Virus record (IMG/VR): IMGVR_UViG_2744054912_000002
Direction: 5' to 3' (one strand)
DNA length: 51,139 nt
Origin: a virus
Lineage: Duplodnaviria > Heunggongvirae > Uroviricota > Caudoviricetes
In this document: positions 9,526 through 45,238 of the stretch, piece by piece
How positions within the stretch are numbered: position 1 is the first letter of the stretch
Layout of the letters: each line of letters opens with the position of its first letter
Notes under the pieces: generated by a model
What the model saw: the letters and a program-made list of their open reading frames with translations, nothing else
Databases searched by the model: none
What the model was told of the DNA's origin: nothing
Program-made: the position numbers and the translations under genes

Positions 9526-9558
9526 CCGGCCAACAAAGCCGGTTGGAAGGAAGCTGTA

Positions 9559-9951
9559 TTATTCTATGCTTTCGATGAGAAGACCATGTTCATAACATTT
9601 AAGCTCATCGCCTTCGTACAGGAATTGGTATCCAACACCACCACCTTCCGGAACATTAGGGAATAAATCATCACTTACCGAAGAACAAATCACACCAATG
9701 CAGCGATCAACGCCTTCTCGTTCTTCAGTGCTGAAAAAATCCTCTTCGGTAAGAACATGAGTACATTGCTCATCAGCATAGGTCGGAAATACATGCTCGA
9801 TGCAATCCGGGTGTTTTAAACCAAGCTGATCGGCAAGCTCGAAAGCATGACGGTATTGTTCAGATCCTGGCTTGCCAACAGTGATGTGCTCAATTTTGTA
9901 GATTGAAGTCGCTTTGTTGATAGTTTGCTTTACTGTTACTTTATCAGACAT
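9559..9951 (-). CDS. Hypothetical protein (upfA-like by position)
   Basis: 130-aa ORF directly adjacent to oriR. Confidence 0.55.
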   Translation of the reverse strand: MSDKVTVKQTINKATSIYKIEHITVGKPGSEQYRHAFELADQLGLKHPDCIEHVFPTYADEQCTHVLTEEDFFSTEEREGVDRCIGVICSSVSDDLFPNVPEGGGVGYQFLYEGDELKCYEHGLLIESIE

Positions 9952-12125: not shown

Positions 12126-13023
12126 GCACTGGAAAAACATTACTATTTATAAACTTTCTCGTGAGGCGGATCTGACCGACTTAGAAGATAAAAAGAAAAT
12201 GATCCTTTTCACGCCATGCGGTAGTCAGGATATGGCCAAGTTCGGTTTTGTATCTCCATTTGGTGATAATTCCGAAGTTATCGCTATGCATGGAAATGGT
12301 TTTATCCTTGTTGAGGCAAAGCGCGAAACAAAAATTCTTCCCCCGCCGGTTATCCAGCGAGCTATTCAAGAAAAAATTGAAAAACTCGAGCAAGAACAAG
12401 CGCGTAAACTGAAGAAAACAGCGAAGGACTCCCTGAAAGACGAAGTTCTGCATTCTCTTCTGCCACGGGCTTTTTCAAAGTTTTCTGTTATCCAGGCGAT
12501 CTACGACGGTTCAACTAAACGTATCTATATCAATGCCAGCGCGCGGCAGGCAGAGGATATGCTCGCGCTTATGCGTAAATCTCTGGGTTCTCTTCCTGTT
12601 GTTCCCCTAAGTGTTGAAAATCCCATTGAATTAACGCTGACCGACTGGGTACGTGATGGTAGTGCTCCACAGGGATTTCAAATGGGGGATGCGGCAGAAC
12701 TTAAGGCAGTGCTTGAGGATGGCGGTATTGCCCGAGTGAAAAAGCAGGACTTGGGAAGTGATGAAATATCCACACACCTGGAAGCTGGCAAGCTCGTCAC
12801 TAAGTTGGCACTCGACTGGCAGAACCGCATTAAATTTACACTGGACCATAACTTCAGCCTTACCAGCGTCAAATTTGCGGATGAATTGCTTGAGCAGAAC
12901 TCTGATATTGATAGTGAAGATGTTGCGCAGCGACTGGACGCAGATTTCTTCCTGTTGACCAGTGAAATTTCGTGCCTGGTTGATGCTCTGGTAAATGCCC
13001 TTGGTGGAGAGGCTAAGCAGTGA
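12118..13023 (+). CDS. hrdC: RdgC-homologous recombination-associated protein
   Basis: From [16 protein letters not shown]...[17 protein letters not shown], strongly RdgC-like N-terminus; 302 aa. Confidence 0.85.
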
Positions 13024-16000
13024 AAGAGCTGTGCTATGGATCTGTTTGCAGTGGAATTGAAGCCGCGAGTATTGCCTGGGAACCGTTGGGTATGCGTCCG
13101 GTGTGGTTTGCTGAAATCGAGCCTTTTCCATCGGCCGTTCTTGCGCTCCGCTGGCCCCATGTCGCCAACCTTGGCGACATGACAAAACTTGCCAAAAAAG
13201 TCTTGGCTGGGGAAATCGAATCCCCTGACGTGCTCGTCGGGGGAACACCATGTTTTACCGCGGGGCATATGGTTCTTTGTAAAAATGGTTATAAACCAAT
13301 AGAAGATGTTTGCCCTGGCGATTACGTAGTCAGTCATCTCGGGCGGTTACAACAAGTAAAAAGAGTTGGTTCAAAAATAGCTAATACGGGGTTACTTAAT
13401 GCCGTTGGGCAGCCTTTAGGTATAAGAACAACCAATGACCATCTCTTCCTGGCTGTTCGGTGGAAAGCCCAAAACACCCGGAAAAATGGCACATATTTTA
13501 AGAGAGAGTTGTTGTCTGAACCGGAATGGCGAGCAGCATGTGATATGCCGGGATATCAATGGTGCGCTCTAACTAATTTCAATATTGCATCTCCAGATAT
13601 TTGTTCTCGGTTCTTGACTGAAGAACAGGCTATGTATCTTGCGGGCGCTTATGTTGGCGATGGATATATTAGGAGATGGAGAGGTAAATCTAAGAAGGCG
13701 GTTGTTTTTGGCATAAATTGCCAGAAATTGAGAAAGTTTCATTGCCGCATACCAGAAAACATATTTTCCGTGGCAAGCGAAATCCGAGGGAGCATCAAAG
13801 TAACCTTGAATGATACGTGTTATGCCAATTGGCTTAATGAACATTTTGGCGAGTTAAGCCATGCTAAGCGTATCCCTGCATGGGTGATGTCGCATCCATT
13901 GCGTCATGTGTTTTTACAAGGCTATCTTGATACTGATGGGACACCAAGTGGTAAAGCGGGATTTAGAATTAATAGTGTTAGTCCTGCGCTTGCTTGGGGC
14001 GTTGCGGGGTTGTCACAGACTTGTGGTTATGTTTCTTCGGTCAGCTTTATTGAAGTTGAGCCCAAAAAAGTGATCGAGGATCGCGTGGTAAATCAACGGA
14101 ATTATTATCAGGTAACAATCTGCCCGCAGAAATTGTCACGTAAATCAAGATTGGCTCATGGAATGCTTTTACGAACAGTCAAAGAGTTTAAATCGGTAGG
14201 CCTAGATACTGTATACAACATAGAAGTCGAAGGTGATCATTCCTATATCCTCAATGGTGCGGTGGTCCATAACTGTCAGGCATTCAGTATCGCGGGATTA
14301 CGTGGTGGGCTTGATGATGAGCGTGGCGCGCTAACTTTAAAGTATGTGGAGCTTGCAAATGCAATTGACGACAAACGGGCTGAGTCATTTCTCAAACCGA
14401 CAGTTATCGTCTGGGAAAATGTCCCAGGAGTCCTGTCATCGGCAGATAACGCCTTCGGATGTTTCCTTGCCGGATTGGCTGGAGAAGATGCGCCATTTGA
14501 ACCAGGTGATCGACCTGAATCAGGAAAAAGTAACGCGTTCTGGCGGTGGGATGGCAAAACCGGTTGCCATGCTCCAAAGTGGCCGCAGTGTGGTTGTATT
14601 TATGGACCGCAGCGAAAGGTGGCCTGGAGAATCCTTGATGCCCAATACTTCGGAGTGGCACAACGACGCCGACGCGTGTTTGTTGTCGCAAGTGCTCGAA
14701 CAGACCTCGATCCCGCAACGGTACTTTTTGAGTTCGAAGGCGTGCGCCGGAATATTGCGCCGAGCCGAAAAAAGAAGGAAATCGCTTCCGCCATTATTGC
14801 AAATGGCGCTGCAATCAGTGGCGAAAGCCTAAATCCATGCCTACACGCTGACATGCCACCCGGTATGAAATCGACGAAAGCCGTAAACGCTTTCAGGATG
14901 GCAGCATTTGGGGAATATATTGACGATGAAACCGCATCGACAGTAAAGGCAAGAGATTTTAAAGATGCCACTGACCTTGCCGTTTTTAGCAGCACAGGAG
15001 CAGGTTTTTGGTCAGAAGGGCATGGTACATTGCGGGCACGTGAGCAAGAAAGCCATGAGCATCTTGTTACATTGGCTTTTCCTGAGCGTATGAGCGGTAC
15101 ACAACATGCTGCAACTAAGAATACTTCACCATCTCTAATGGCTAAAAATCCAACAGCTGTTTGCTATGAAGTAAGAAACGCAGAAGTAGCTGTCCGCCGT
15201 CTTACCCCTGTCGAATGTGAAAGGCTGCAAGGTTTTCCTGATGGGAATACGTTGATCCCGACGGAAAAGCGTAAAAAAGTTAATTCAGATGAACTGGCAT
15301 ATCTTCGCAATCACTATCCAGATTTAAGCGAAGAAGAGGCCGCGATGCTTGCAGCTGACGGACCGCGTTACAAAGCGATCGGCAATAGTATGGCAATACC
15401 AGTAATGCGCTGGATTGGCGATCGGATTACTAAGGCCGTATGTCGGCAGAAAGAAGGAAGTGAAACAAAAGAGCGAAAAGTTAAACCAGCGGCAGAATTC
15501 GAACGGTCCATATTCAAATGGGCTGGTGGAAAATTTGGTGTTCTGGAACAAATCTTTCGCTATTTGCCAGAAGGGAAGCGCCTGATTGAACCTTTCGTTG
15601 GTGGCGGAGCTGTCTTCATGAATGCCGGATACCAGGAAAATCTGCTAAATGATGTGAATGCTGACCTGATTAACTTTTACAAGACTCTGCAACGCGAGGC
15701 GCATTCACTTATCACTCTGGCACATCGTTTCTTCCAGGACTACAACACACAGGAAGGATACCTGGCAGTACGGAATGCGTTTAACAAACAAGTCTATGAT
15801 GATTTACATCGCGCAGCGGCGTTTTTGTTCCTGAACCGACATTGTTTTAACGGATTGACGCGTTACAACCAGGCCGGTGAGTTCAATGTCGGTTATGGGA
15901 AGTATAAAACTCCGTATTTCCCATTACAGGAGATGGAAGCCTTCCTCGGTGCGGAAGGGCGGTCTGAGTTTGTATGCGGTGATTTTGCAGCGGTGATTGA

Positions 16001-16307
16001 AGCTGCCGGAGAAGGAGATGTCATCTTTTGCGATCCGCCGTATGAACCGCTTCCAAATACAGAGGGATTCACGAACTATTCCGGTCATGACTTTAAGTTT
16101 GAAGAGCAAAAACGCCTGGTGTCTCTGTTGACGGATGCTCATCGTCGAGGTGCAAAGGTTCTCATTACTAACAGTGGCGCGCCAAACATCAGAGAGCTTT
16201 ATCATGACAGTGGCTTCAGAGTGGAACCTCTTTTTGCCAGACGTTCTGTGTCTTGTAAGGGGGACACTCGAGGTGTAGCTCATGACGTTTTGGGTGTATT
16301 GCTCTAA
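13020..16307 (+). CDS. dmt: DNA methyltransferase Dmt (N-terminal C5-cytosine MTase domain fused to C-terminal Dam-like N6-adenine MTase), interrupted in frame by an intein
   Basis: C5-MTase motifs: motif [10 protein letters not shown], motif IV GGTP|...|CQAFS, ENV (WENVPGVLS), motif [11 protein letters not shown]; Dam motifs [20 protein letters not shown]; 1095 aa, 754 aa after intein removal. Confidence 0.9.
13251..14273 (+). other. Intein (341 aa) with LAGLIDADG homing-endonuclease domain inserted at the catalytic Pro-Cys of the C5-MTase
   Basis: Starts Cys ([13 protein letters not shown], block A), block [21 protein letters not shown] motifs [11 protein letters not shown] and [12 protein letters not shown], terminal blocks [21 protein letters not shown] followed by +1 Cys of CQAFS. 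Confidence 0.85.
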
Positions 16308-16314
16308 TAAATTT
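16298..16314 (+). promoter_or_regulatory. C1 operator-like site overlapping the dmt stop codon
   Basis: ATTGCTCTAATAAATTT, perfect consensus; dmt TAA lies inside it. Confidence 0.7.
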
Positions 16315-16488
16315 ATTAGTGTAATATCGCCTCAATGAATCGTGATTTATAGAGCGATTTAGCTGTTAGCCGCGACAGGCGCGGCGGTAAGCATGGCTGG
16401 GCCTAGTCCTCCCAGACAAACCACCGAGTTGCCAGGTTGACCATGCGCCTAAGTGGCAACGCCGAAGTGCGTTACGAGCTTCCAGTTT

Positions 16489-16514
16489 GCCCATCTTCGG
16501 GTGGGCGTTTTTTT
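16489..16514 (+). terminator. Rho-independent terminator-like hairpin
   Basis: gcccatc-ttcg-ggtgggc followed by T7. Confidence 0.5.
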
Positions 16515-16980
16515 CAGGGTTTTCGTCATGGTTAGCGACTTTGCGGCGGTTTAGAAACTGACCATTAAAGTAAATGCAAACGATGATCTGATGATGGTAG
16601 CGGCCTAAGAAACCAGATGCCACGGGGTATGAGTCGTCCCCCGTCAAAAAAATCGACCGCAGAGTGTCCCCGTCTGTGTATTAGGGAACGGGGAGGCACA
16701 ACAGGTAAGGGCGCTGGTGTGATTAACCAGATGAACGAGAAGGGGCCATCTGTTGGTCAGCGTCCTTTCCTGTTGCGTTTTCTTTTCAGCGTAACAGCGG
16801 TGCTTAACAGCACTTTGGGTACAGTTCCACGAATTTACGGGTATATCCCGTCATGCTGAAGGCGCTAATCACGCTGGAAGCCAGGGTTGTGCATCCCCTG
16901 TTACCGAATTGCAGCCAGGGCGCGGTGCGCCGAAAAGCATACGGAGGTGGAAGCCCTCGCCGGAGACGTACCCGGCAGGT

Positions 16981-17055
16981 GATGGTGTAGCTCAGCGGTT
17001 AGAGCGGTTGACTGTTAATCAACGGGTCGATGGTTAAATCCATCCACCATCGCCA
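16981..17055 (+). tRNA. tRNA-Asn (anticodon GUU), CCA encoded
   Basis: Hand-folded cloverleaf: acceptor GATGGTG/CACCATC, D-arm GCTC-AGCGGTTA-GAGC, anticodon loop CTGTTAA; T-loop appears to be 6 nt (TTAAAT) in my fold, so boundaries are approximate. Confidence 0.75.
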
Positions 17056-17057
17056 AT

Positions 17058-17133
17058 GCCGGTTTAGCTCAGTTGGTAGAGCGCCTGCCTTGTAAGCAGG
17101 ATGTCAGCGGTTCGAGTCCGTTAATCGGCACCA
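17058..17133 (+). tRNA. tRNA-Thr (anticodon UGU), CCA encoded
   Basis: Acceptor GCCGGTT/AATCGGC, D-arm GCTC-AGTTGGTA-GAGC, anticodon loop CTTGTAA, T-arm AGCGG-TTCGAGT-CCGTT; 2 nt after tRNA-Asn. Confidence 0.85.
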
Positions 17134-17864
17134 GCACAACAGGTAAGGGTATTTTGCGACGTCGGAGATCGCCGAGCTTGGCAGAGGGTTCGAATCCCTA
17201 CGAAGTACCCTTACCGTTGTGATGAAGTGCAGCTCTTTGAAGCAACCAGAAGATAAGCATCTGGCTTCACAACATAAACCGCAGGAACGACCAATAAACG
17301 GTAGTCCGTATGGAGAACACCCCGTTGAGGAAGAGGCCTGGCCGGAACCGTAACCGGCACTACAACGTTGAGAACACTGGCGTAACGGGGTCATATCCCA
17401 ATCTACGAATAAATGTTGCGTTGCAGCGTGACAACCAGTGTTCTCAACATTGTGGTGAATGCACAGGCTGATGTGCCGCAACTACAGTAGTGCGCGCTTT
17501 GCGGGGCTTGCTACAACCCTGTGTCGGAGTTCAGCACCGACCATCACAGTTTGATTCTCTGGCATGAGCATAACGCTGAAATAAGTCCAGTCTGGTGCGG
17601 CCCGATCACCCGCCGTTAGCTCCACGAAACGGAGCACGTAACAGGTAAGAGCATTCTCCTGTAACGGGTTCATATCCCAATCTACAGGTCCACCAAGAAT
17701 GCTCTTTCCGTTGCGGTGAATGCGGCTAAGCGCACGCGGGGAAATGGTTATATCTGTCCATTATTTCTCCTTGTTTCCACGTCCACGGTGGATAACCAGC
17801 CAAAGGACACCGGGAGGCACCCGGCACCGCAACCTTATTTCCCAACCAGTAATGAGGTTAATAA

Positions 17865-18290
17865 ATGCTCGGCATTCTCAAAAAGAAATTCCGCAAAGCG
17901 GCTGGCGGAGTCAAGAAGATGGAAAACCGTGATGCGGTGGAAGCGACTGTCTGGGGCGCATATTCCATTGCATACTCTGACGGCACCTGCGATGCGAAAG
18001 AAATTGCAGTATTGGAAAAAACCATTGCAGCACTTCCTGCCTTTGCGCCGTTCTCCGGTGAAATTGCCCAGATGAGCGCCAATATTCGCGCTCAATATGA
18101 AGCCTCGCCGCGCCGAGCGAATGCCCAGGCTTTACGTGAACTGGCTGACGTGTCTGGAACTAATGATGCGGTAGATGTTCTGTGCCTATGCATTGATATT
18201 GCTGACCAGGATGGCATTGGGGCAGAAGAGCAGGAGCAATTGAAGAAAATTGCCCAGGCTCTTCAATTGCCACTGGAACAGTATATCTGA
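17865..18290 (+). CDS. tciA: TerB-like tellurite-resistance/stress protein TciA
   Basis: 141 aa; RBS GAGG; synteny between tRNAs and ban. Confidence 0.7.
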   Translation: MLGILKKKFRKAAGGVKKMENRDAVEATVWGAYSIAYSDGTCDAKEIAVLEKTIAALPAFAPFSGEIAQMSANIRAQYEASPRRANAQALRELADVSGTNDAVDVLCLCIDIADQDGIGAEEQEQLKKIAQALQLPLEQYI

Positions 18291-43567: not shown

Positions 43568-43700
43568 GTGTTTTTTAACTGCCGATGTTACATTGAGCCT
43601 GACCTCTTGCGCCTTGAGGCATTTTCGGTTTATGCTTATCAGGCACCTCAGTAAAACGGGTGCCGGGATTGAGACCCCGGATAATGCAAAAGGCGACACA

Positions 43701-43722
43701 GACGCCAAAAGCGTCTTTTTTT
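43701..43722 (+). terminator. Rho-independent terminator
   Basis: gacgc-caaaa-gcgtc followed by T7. Confidence 0.6.
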
Positions 43723-43744
43723 GTGTCATGCCATCGCACAGCCA

Positions 43745-43880
43745 TACGTAGCGTTTAGCTCAGAGATCAATGGTAGTGCTGGCTGGGCTGCCGAAAGGCA
43801 GGCCGGTTCCCTTTTGCGCCGGTAGTCTCAACCCAGTCAGTGCTACCGCCATTGAGATTGAGACCTCACGCGGTAGCTCC
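43745..43880 (+). ncRNA. Structured leader / candidate c4-like antisense regulatory RNA
   Basis: Long imperfect closing stem (43765-43782 with 43823-43844), GAAA-tetraloop hairpin (43788-43801), second hairpin (43803-43822) whose loop is complementary to the downstream RBS. Confidence 0.4.
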
Positions 43881-44129: not shown

Positions 44130-45238
44130 GAACGTCATTAGTCACCCGTGAAGAGATGATCGAGGCAATTGAACAGCACACTGCCTGTATCAGTACCAGG
44201 GATATACCGGGCGTTATTGCCAACTACTTCATGATCACCAAACAACTTTACCGGAGAAAGGACAAACACGCGGTTCACCGCATTCTGCTAACCGATATCC
44301 GTGAATACCTGCTCGAACAGGGTCATCTGAATTACGCAACCGTCGCAGCCGAAGCACGCAAGGAGGCACACAGAATGAAAGCAACTAACGTTAAATCAGA
44401 AAAAATTTATGCACCTTCAGTTCAGGAATCGGAACTGGTGGTTGTTCAGAATCAGCCGGATGAAATTCCCGTTCTGGAATGGCAGGGAGTACGTGTCGTG
44501 ACAACCGAAACTCTTGCTAGAGGGTATGGTGTCGATGAAGCCAATATTCGCAACAATTTGTCTCGCAACCTTGACCGCTTTGAAGAAGGTAAGCATTACT
44601 TTCTTCTAACTGGTTTAAAATTAAGAGAATTTAAGAACAGAGTAACCGGAAGTTACTCTGTTGGTAAGAACGCCAGAAGCCTTACACTCTGGACAGAGCG
44701 CGGCGCTGCACGCATGTCTAAGATCGTGGACACAAATGAAGCATGGGCATTCTTTGAAAAACTGGAAGACAGCTACTTCCGGCAAAAAGAACAGCAACCG
44801 GTTGCAATCCCCCAGACGCTTCCAGAAGCTCTGCGCCTGGCTGCCGAACTGGCTGAACAAAAGCAGCTTCTGGAACAGAAAGCCCACCAGCTAAATCAGC
44901 AGCTGGTGGCCGCCGCTCCTAAAGTCGATTTTGCCGACCGGGTATCAGTAGCTAAAGGGATCCTGATTGGGAATTTTGCAAAGGTTGTTGGACTTAAGCA
45001 AAACGCGCTGTTTGCCTGGTTACGGGAGAACGGCATCCTGATAGCGTCCGGTGGACGTAAAAATGTGCCGTTCCAGCAGTACATCAATGCGGGGTATTTC
45101 ACGGTGAAAGAAGTGGTGCTGGATGATGAAGATGGCTACCAGATACGGTTGACGCCTCAATTAACGGGTAAAGGCCAGCAGTGGTTGACGCGTAAACTGC
45201 TCGATGCTGGCTTGTTAAAACCGGTGGCGGCTGAATAA
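44126..45238 (+). CDS. Antirepressor-like protein (ORF6N-like N-terminal domain plus KilA-C/AntA-like C-terminal domain)
   Basis: 370 aa; ...VRVVTTETLARGYGVDEANIRNNLSRNLDRFEEGKHYFLL... and C-terminal ...PFQQYINAGYFTVKEV... Confidence 0.7.
   Translation: MRTSLVTREEMIEAIEQHTACISTRDIPGVIANYFMITKQLYRRKDKHAVHRILLTDIREYLLEQGHLNYATVAAEARKEAHRMKATNVKSEKIYAPSVQESELVVVQNQPDEIPVLEWQGVRVVTTETLARGYGVDEANIRNNLSRNLDRFEEGKHYFLLTGLKLREFKNRVTGSYSVGKNARSLTLWTERGAARMSKIVDTNEAWAFFEKLEDSYFRQKEQQPVAIPQTLPEALRLAAELAEQKQLLEQKAHQLNQQLVAAAPKVDFADRVSVAKGILIGNFAKVVGLKQNALFAWLRENGILIASGGRKNVPFQQYINAGYFTVKEVVLDDEDGYQIRLTPQLTGKGQQWLTRKLLDAGLLKPVAAE

Follow-up and report, generated by a model that had tools for sequence, protein, structure and literature searches.

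Long, mismatched stems cut by RNase III punctuate the polycistronic transcripts of the T7 early region and of the ribosomal RNA (rRNA) operons, and release stable RNAs or messenger RNAs (mRNAs). Mitochondrial transcripts are punctuated by transfer RNAs (tRNAs): these and tRNA-shaped elements take turns with other RNAs along one long transcript and serve as processing signals. The PeSL cassettes of T4-type phages are said (Arbiol, Comeau, and Krisch, 2010) to consist of short conserved stem-loops bordering shuffled cassettes. STnc100 and PasD are expressed prophage small RNAs (sRNAs) encoded near tRNAs and near lysis or stx genes, STnc100 in the late regions of Stx phages. In the Escherichia coli K-12 prophage Qin, the 5' end of the 190-nucleotide (nt) DicF RNA depends on RNase III; this end, mapped by primer extension, disappears when rnc is mutated (Faubladier et al. 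1990; bioRxiv 10.1101/2023.04.14.536235). The present analysis deals with the 1.5 kb between dmt and tciA in IMG/VR record IMGVR_UViG_2744054912_000002, a Caudoviricetes sequence of 51,139 nt, the whole of which we call the window. This interval carries four long hairpins (M1-M4) among tRNAs and tRNA-like domains (S_a, S_b, and S_c). Neither processing stems for RNase III nor tRNA-like sRNAs are new as kinds of element, and the DicF site and STnc100 are known cases of them. We lean, with some reserve, towards the reading that RNase III-type processing hairpins punctuate here the tRNA and tRNA-like leader of the ban operon, which is built from interchangeable RNA modules.

Positions 16300-17870 of the window were 99.3% identical to phage P1 (68669-70238), indicating a P1-type phage. 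In the P1 record, the end of dmt holds the C1-controlled promoters P1ban and P2ban and the operator Oban; next come a 'dicF-like region', tRNA-Asn, tRNA-Thr, plp and upl (minus strand), tciABC, tRNA-Ile, and ban. Near the finding ARAGORN and Rfam called only the tRNAs Asn, Thr, and Ile2. No promoter-like site was found inside 16200-17950, and the sole terminator-like site of that range lies at 16488-16507. Given the layout of the P1 record, the mere three tRNA calls, and the lack of an internal promoter-like site, the dmt-tciA interval is the untranslated plus-strand leader of the C1-controlled ban operon. The modules within it are non-coding, conserved in structure on the transcribed strand, and common to unrelated phages.

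The first-pass annotation had described this interval as rich in repeats, and all of them were located where it had placed them. Its threefold motif held for a 12-mer and failed for the full 15-mer. The 14-mer ACAACAGGTAAGGG was exact at 16698 and 17136 (chance expectation 0.02 per window), but the third copy, at 17637, reads CGTAACAGGTAAGAG, differs at 2 of the first 4 bases, and has only AACAGGTAAG(A)G in common with the others. The second copy does adjoin the CCA end of tRNA-Thr. The 25-nt block occurs at 17382-17406, inside M3, and at 17661-17685, inside M4, with 1 mismatch (0 expected), and TTG(T/C)GGTGAATGC (= TTGYGGTGAATGC) at 17450 and 17711 (0.24 expected). The inverted repeats proved longer than claimed, with 23-nt arms at 17358-17380 and 17435-17457 and 14-nt arms at 17644-17657 and 17696-17709. 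The first two motif copies had not been recognised as the 5' arms of the long hairpins M1 and M2. It had also been overlooked that the GGTGAATGC motif opens a separate tRNA-like domain, outside the hairpin, and that the module families span lambdoid, P1-like, and SSU5-like phages and some virulent ones, with interchangeable interiors. The idea of two paralogous structured RNA elements fits M3 and M4, paralogous hairpins with a common interior block, but the hairpins number four.

The fold z-scores of M1-M4 ranged from -4.4 to -5.5, 0 of 200 shuffles folded as well, and all four hairpins persisted in the fold of the whole leader, M1 in both its minimum free energy (MFE) and its centroid structure. 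In M1 the A that is bulged elsewhere is paired with an extra U, and in D6-type relatives a C-G pair of its base helix is changed to U-A. The interior of M2 holds a T-arm-like GAGGGTTCGAATCCCTA immediately before the 3' arm; in P7 the arms of M2 are kept, and the interior is unrelated and 19 nt shorter. The 23-nt arms of M3 are 91% complementary, and both have changed coherently.

The M family was defined from 53 distinct arm pairs, with a 5' arm CACAAC-A-GGTAAGRGYRYTN and a complementary 3' arm ending CTTWCC-GTTGYG. M1, M2, and M4 were recovered by the same search as the copies of lambda, HK75, and other phages. The conserved lower stem has 19 base pairs (bp), CACAAC-A-GGUAAGRGCAUUG ... CAGUGCYCUUWCC-GUUGUG, with a bulged A, often a U.U mismatch, and a swappable interior. 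This stem was 94.5% paired, compared with 36-52% in slid-register controls, a percentage inflated by the choice of the 3' arms partly for complementarity, which leaves register and compensatory changes unaffected. The register of the 3' arm was fixed by the conserved CTTWCC-GTTGTG; in the 5' arm, which served as search key, the first 15 nt had little room to vary. Both-sided changes were found in 11/19 pairs, e.g., GAGCA/UGCUC, GGGUA/UACCC, GGGCG/CGCCC, and AUGGC/GCCAU, and none of 500 column shuffles attained any of five pairing measures. G-U combinations numbered 65 and A-C combinations 10. The bulged A was retained in 48 of 49 arm pairs, and about half had the U.U mismatch at pair 9. Wherever a tRNA lay within 1.5 kb, the hairpin and the nearest tRNA were on the same strand (59/59, all P1 copies included). 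Because of this covariation, the excess of G-U over A-C, the kept bulge and mismatch, and the fixed strand, the M stem would act as RNA on the transcribed strand rather than as a DNA palindrome, and the comparison of arms points to a selected RNA structure. Compensatory base changes in the stems of related phages, which the first-pass annotation had named as a check, were thus found.

A scan of viral contigs with the 5' arm gave at least 120 loci, mostly real matches. Among the matches listed, the 5' arm extends to CACAACAGGTAAGAGCATTG and is followed 30-280 nt later by CAGTGCTCTTWCCGTTGTG. In annotated examples the modules lie in the lambdoid late-operon leader, between tR' and the lysis genes. 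The lambda M hairpin (44787-44866) is canonical, starts 6 nt past the U-run of tR', and has an S domain behind it; HK75 carries the module between tR' and its holin gene. The K-12 prophage DLP12 had no module, and no other M copy was found elsewhere in the 51-kb window. At gathering thresholds, Rfam returned only a tRNA in 12 lambdoid loci. A covariance-model search of the P1-type region, suggested earlier for the hairpin elements, likewise gave tRNAs only at these thresholds. Literature searches for the M arm sequences gave nothing relevant.

Matches on genome contigs of Pseudomonas, Bacillales, Actinomycetes, Oceanobacillus, Shewanella, Bradyrhizobium, and others were the exact 72-nt module of lambda. 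Several of these draft-genome matches (L138, L149, L154, L155, L160, and others) were on low-coverage contigs of ~48.4 kb. The lambda module in unrelated draft genomes is most likely contamination with lambda control DNA, and not an indication of host range. In one viral contig bearing M hairpins and the tag domain described below (L097), ARAGORN found at 9535-9610, inside a six-tRNA cluster, a tRNA with anticodon CUA (listed as tRNA-Pyl, i.e., amber-suppressor-type).

The link to RNase III comes from Qin, where an M-type hairpin lies at 19173-19258 of locus L137, between ydfC and dicF. After it come the segment called 'dicF-like' in the P1 annotation, then dicF, and then an STnc100-type domain directly upstream of dicB. 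Its arms read CAUAAC...GAAAGCGCAUGG and CCGUGCGCUUCC-GGUUGUG; they agree with the M consensus at 14/20 and 15/19 positions, and their changes compensate each other. Counted 190 nt back from the annotated 3' end of dicF (19435), the processed end falls at ~19246, inside the 3' arm and ~12 nt above the helix base. As the rnc-dependent DicF 5' end falls inside its 3' arm, this member of the M family is an experimentally established RNase III site in vivo. Substrates of E. coli RNase III have an intramolecular helix of about two turns (at least 20 bp, mismatches allowed), and the 19-bp stem plus the further pairs in each P1 hairpin give such a helix. The sequences of the T7 and rRNA stems are unrelated to the M family, which stands apart by conservation of the lower stem, interchangeable tops, and a modular distribution over phages. 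For the late RNA of lambda, Daniels, Subbarao, Blattner, and Lozeron (1988, Virology 167:568) reportedly describe sites processed by RNase III in vivo, which might lie in the lambda M hairpin. The P1 copies differ from the Qin site in flanking tRNAs and tRNA-like domains rather than DicF and in their unrelated interiors, and rnc-dependent cleavage within the M family is known only for the Qin homologue (Faubladier et al. 1990). Gordon 2017 gives no RNase III site for dicF.

The 'dicF-like region' of the window (16366-16514) has its homologue in Qin, in the RNase III-generated 5' part of the DicF precursor of 190 nt. It ends in a hairpin and terminator (16488-16514) unlike those of Qin, and P1 may make a different 3' sRNA from the shared dicF-like scaffold.

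The S domains follow one plan, seen in ~40 distinct versions. A closing helix UUGUGGUG/CACCACAA is followed by a D-arm-like GCRC-AGGCUGAU-GYGC, a variable middle of 20-150 nt, and a 5-bp hairpin abutting the 3' strand. The closing helix covaries, with UUGCGGUG/CACCGCAA in P1 S_c, UUGUGAUG/CAUCACAA in P1-like plasmids, and UUGUGCUG/CAGCACAA in lambda. The last, T-like stem covaries as well, and ~10 versions have the canonical UUCGAUU T-loop. In some loci the S slot holds a real tRNA-Arg or a plainly decayed tRNA, and the HK75 version weakly matched the 3' end of the transfer-messenger RNA (tmRNA) model. S_b folded as a cloverleaf-like four-way junction (z -0.94) and S_c as a four-way junction (z -3.15). 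A stable fold of S_a was unsupported (z -0.13), although its end motifs are present; its sub-hairpin at 17216-17268 had 95% identity with Klebsiella SSU5-like plasmids (66-nt matches). Judged by their topology and T-arm remnants, the S domains appear to be tRNA-derived. The tRNA models gave no match on M2, S_a, S_b, or S_c at E up to 10. Signs of RNase P or RNase Z cutting at the S domains, which would extend the resemblance to mitochondrial tRNA punctuation, did not appear in this analysis.

S_c matched the Rfam STnc100 model (RF02076) with 41.9 bits (E 2.7e-7) at 17712-17831, over model positions 31-147 of 206, a score that does not reach the gathering score of 47. The match covers the model core, including the closing helix and the CCGGGAGGCACCCGG hairpin, and a homologous S_c-type domain lies between dicF and dicB in Qin. 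In contrast to STnc100, the P1 domain is the tciA leader and is not known as a free-standing gene, and the other S domains had no match to the model. The features of the leader are collected in Table 1.

Table 1. Features of the ban operon leader in the window, in order of position.
Feature	Position	Strand	Description
tmRNA-tag-like domain	16515..16696	+	directly upstream of M1, same leader; tag frame 16576-16608
M1 hairpin	16691..16783	+	5' arm GGCACAACAGGTAAGGGCGCTG, 3' arm CAGCGTCCTTTCCTGTTGCG; -45.9 kcal/mol, z -4.86
tRNA-Asn (GUU)	16981..17055	+	ARAGORN; Rfam tRNA 67.3 bits
tRNA-Thr (UGU)	17058..17133	+	ARAGORN; Rfam tRNA 72.9 bits; M2 5' arm begins one base after CCA end
M2 hairpin	17135..17221	+	arms CACAAC-A-GGTAAGGGTATTT / AAGTACCCTTACC-GTTGTG; -41.6 kcal/mol, z -5.22
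S_a spacer	17217..17366	+	ends TTGTGATG and CACTACAA; hairpin CCGGAACCGTAACCGG before 3' strand; weakly structured
M3 hairpin, diverged M member	17358..17457	+	arms CACTACAAC-GTTGAGAACACTGG / CCAGTGTTCTCAAC-ATTGTGGTG; -49.6 kcal/mol, z -5.52
S_b tRNA-like domain	17450..17549	+	closing helix UUGUGGUG/CAUCACAG; D-arm-like GCAC-AGGCUGAU-GUGC; T-arm-like GUCGG-AGUUCAGCA-CCGAC abutting 3' strand
Small hairpin GCTCC-ACGAAAC-GGAGC	17619..17635	+	recurrent 'cgaaacggagc, CACAAC' context before M 5' arm in many loci
M4 hairpin	17637..17715	+	arms CGTAAC-A-GGTAAGAGCATTC / GAATGCTCTTTCC-GTTGCG; -37.1 kcal/mol, z -4.44; listed as family member
S_c STnc100-like tRNA-shaped domain	17711..17832	+	closing helix UUGCGGUG/CACCGCAA; last hairpin CCGGG-AGGCA-CCCGG; tciA 5' leader

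P1-like phages and plasmids differ in this leader by whole modules. In D6 and P7, a tRNA-Ser(UGA) is directly followed by CCA and by an M-type hairpin that stands at the M4 position. pE94-3 carries an extra S+M unit of 196 nt between two copies of CTTACCGTTGTGATGAA, and the Escherichia albertii and O7:H4 plasmids have additional M, S, tRNA-Ser, tRNA-Tyr, and tRNA-Arg units. SSU5-like phage-plasmids of E. coli and Klebsiella, otherwise unrelated to P1, share with it the tRNA-Asn/Thr block and the modules, here within a 1.5-kb gap free of genes. The tRNA-Ser(UGA) of D6 and P7 is 87 nt long (L002 2607-2693, L004 2784-2870), is not assigned by tRNAscan-SE (D6 record), and is absent from P1, which has at this place the 3' end of S_b, a spacer, and M4. 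We rejected the idea that M2 is a decayed class-II tRNA, such as the Tyr or Ser of the relatives; their tRNA-Tyr sits between Asn and Thr, and their tRNA-Ser before the M4 position.

If the M hairpins are processing signals, they would form locally and co-transcriptionally, and RNase III would cut their double-stranded stems. The cuts would separate the tag-like RNA, the tRNA-Asn/tRNA-Thr precursor, the S RNAs, and the tciA-ban mRNA, and would leave short trailers for exonucleolytic trimming. The released tRNA-Asn/Thr dimer would be finished by RNase P and 3' exonucleases. The S domains, which include the STnc100/PasD prophage sRNA type, would occupy slots held by real tRNAs in relatives, and the folded S_c domain, as the tciA 5' untranslated region, would form the 5' end of the tciA-ban mRNA. 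Repeated processing signals in a long tRNA-containing transcript had been one of the earlier proposals, and it is the one we favour on the compensatory changes on the transcribed strand and the RNase III cut in the Qin homologue; for P1 itself, we infer the cutting of M1-M4 as well as the fate and role of the released S RNAs. The suggested cut by RNase E or RNase P at the acaggtaag motif does not agree with the Qin homologue, in which the known cut is by RNase III, in the 3' arm.

Several observations weigh against this explanation. The RNase III link comes from one mapped homologue and a placement by size (190 nt, +/- a few nt). The only P1 transcriptome paper found, a preprint on delta-hfq, does not resolve the leader. 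The MFE fold of the whole lambda leader omits the M hairpin, which we treated as uninformative compared with the comparative signal, and S_a and S_b are not thermodynamically distinctive. In SJ46 (L005 2585-2647) and L064, 279 nt between the two 25-nt blocks are deleted, which leaves a chimeric hairpin with the M3 5' half, the M4 3' half, and non-complementary arms, so individual hairpins are dispensable. Finally, one strand, GUUGUG, serves two covarying but mutually exclusive helices, the one at the base of M and the one that closes S. Because the two helices cannot form together, a simple 'cut here' model leaves the shared strand unexplained. In M4/S_c all three strands have changed coherently (CGUAAC / GUUGCG / CACCGCAAC), which hints at alternative pairings.

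Recombination at the repeats clearly happens, and the repeats might act mainly as DNA, with the arms as joints at which tRNA and tRNA-like cassettes are exchanged and the RNA hairpin incidental. The arrays differ by whole units with breakpoints inside the repeats (pE94-3, E. albertii, O7:H4, and the loss in SJ46), and identical modules occur across P1-like, SSU5-like, lambdoid, and rV5-like phages. We nevertheless hold this reading to be unlikely: homologous exchange needs identity and not complementarity, yet the arms covary and prefer G-U to A-C; their orientation to transcription is fixed, and one homologue is an RNA processing site. Recombination is expected at any repeat, so it may be a consequence and not the function. 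A leader of functionless debris, in which decaying copies of tRNAs (and of tmRNA) and spacers are under weak selection, would agree with the resemblance of the S domains to degraded tRNAs with 9-nt T-like loops and no Rfam tRNA match, with the highly variable interiors, with the hairpin loss in SJ46, and with S_a and S_b being not unusually stable. We give it a still smaller chance, since compensatory changes are seen in M stems, in S closing helices, and in T-like stems alike, the lower stem with its bulged A and U.U mismatch is kept across unrelated phages, virulent ones included, and the STnc100 and PasD relatives are expressed sRNAs. The bracket model, in which a preceding 3' arm pairs with the following 5' arm around each tRNA or S unit, with a nested tmRNA-like fold around the tag domain, was rejected because distal arm sequences match only within one hairpin, never between neighbouring hairpins, and no arm lies upstream of the P1 tag domain.

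Inverted repeats of ~20 nt at the termini, many copies, and unrelated genomes also recall selfish miniature inverted-repeat transposable elements (MITE-like or ERIC-like) that transpose into phage leaders. Here, however, the arms are conserved and the interiors unrelated, the flanks listed show no target-site duplication, the orientation is always that of the transcript, and the copies occur only in tRNA or late-leader contexts, which makes such an origin very improbable. Integron attC sites are likewise imperfect palindromes, whose outer boxes are conserved, whose centre varies, and which have an extrahelical base. The M boxes GCACAAC / GTTGTGG fail, however, at two positions of RYYYAAC / GTTRRRY, M pairing tolerates G-U on one strand only, M orientation follows transcription, and no integron integrase is implicated, though no search aimed at one was made. 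Both the MITE and the attC reading were rejected, as their defining features fail. PeSLs differ in carrying an early promoter and flanking protein genes, whereas M hairpins have no promoter and flank tRNA-type units. The rrn boxA is UGCUCUUUAACAA, and UGCUCUUU is its first eight bases. A boxA-like antitermination signal UGCUCUUU in the 3' arm could load Nus factors and let the untranslated leader escape Rho; most 3' arms contain it (e.g., window 17697-17709 and lambda L133 1047-1059) and read CAGUGCUCUUU/A, and transcription has to cross 1.5 kb of untranslated leader before ban is reached. The motif is, however, hidden in a stable helix and is not kept where the stem covaries (M1 CAGCGUCCUUUCC, M2 AGUACCCUUACC, M3 CAGUGUUCUCAAC), and lambda has Q for its late transcription already, so we see very little chance that it is the function. 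Lastly, the region might encode Plp and Upl on the minus strand, where open frames of 125 and 63 amino acids exist and carry annotation in P1 and RCS47. By tblastn the plp frame has stops or is split in Ro157, P7, pE94-3, L017, and L022 and is truncated in SJ46, and upl is absent from D6, P7, and SJ46. Neither has a Pfam match, the P7 and D6 records leave both unannotated, the plp start codon is TTG, and its last 10 codons are antisense to tRNA-Thr. That the region codes for them is hardly credible; plp and upl are almost certainly not genes, in agreement with the earlier remark that no convincing open reading frame is present.

Upstream of M1, the leader contains a domain resembling the tag part of tmRNA. 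Its tag frame, GCA AAC GAT GAT CTG ATG ATG GTA GCG GCC TAA, is start-codon-less, follows UAAAU, and would give ANDDLMMVAA*; a covarying hairpin at the tag stop is followed by a pseudoknot-like element. In P1-like, SSU5-like, lambdoid, Felix-O1-like, and Vi1-like phages, 18 distinct versions were found, every one of them 10 codons long and closed by an in-frame stop (TAA, TAG, or TGA). Single-nucleotide codon differences were synonymous in 42% of cases in the tag frame, vs. 4% and 24% in the other two frames. Of 50,697 phage records, 771 matched the domain, which most of them leave unannotated; their tags include ANEEMYLAVA, ANDEQFLAVA, and ANDNVFLAVA. In two phages the domain lies just downstream of a promoter-like sequence (read by eye). 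The likeness to tmRNA consists of the resume-type GCA after UAAAU, the 10-codon AN(D/E)...A(A/V)A frame, the stop at a hairpin, and the pseudoknot-like element after it. Unlike tmRNA, no tRNA-like domain with G3:U70, T arm, and CCA end is detectable here. The Rfam tmRNA models gave only partial matches of 12-24 bits, ARAGORN called no tmRNA in the window or in 19 related loci, and the tag peptides brought up nothing relevant in literature searches. The only phages with ssrA in a 2014 census are mycobacteriophages and Bacillus phage G. One could imagine a modular phage system of the trans-translation type, in which the tag template (ANDDLMMVAA*; AN(D/E)x(x)(F/Y)LAVA* in lambdoid, Felix-O1-like, and Vi1-like phages) is decoded. 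The RNase III-cut M hairpins and the S domains would then, once processed, either provide the tRNA-like function or hold it in place, as a tmRNA in several pieces, or else hijack the host SmpB-tmRNA. We consider this speculative and improbable.

Two observations concern other parts of the window. Dmt (13020-16307) has 1095 amino acids compared with 754 in P1 and includes an intein (~13248-14270) with Hint and LAGLIDADG domains, inserted in the GGTP/CQAFS motif, between P and C, of the C5-methyltransferase half (Pfam); phage Ro157c2YLVW carries the same long dmt. Rfam matches at 43643-43853 to isrK (58 bits) and to C4 antisense RNA (75 bits) agree with what the P1 immI region should contain.

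Searches of the literature and of Rfam gave no description of the M/S family, of its sharing by P1 and lambda, or of a design with swappable interiors. The 1.5 kb between dmt and tciA of P1 would be an RNA-processing landscape, made from an unrecognised module kit that lambda, K-12 dicBF, Stx phages, and phage-plasmids also carry and that has no Rfam family. A defined family would link the cut of the DicF precursor, the lambda late-leader cuts, and STnc100/PasD, and it gives targets for end mapping in rnc and rne strains. The modules are also a handle on the exchange and decay of phage tRNA cassettes. The tag-like domain could open the question of phage interference with ribosome rescue; if the system proposed for it were true, phages would re-tag the products of stalled ribosomes, or let them escape tagging, during infection.

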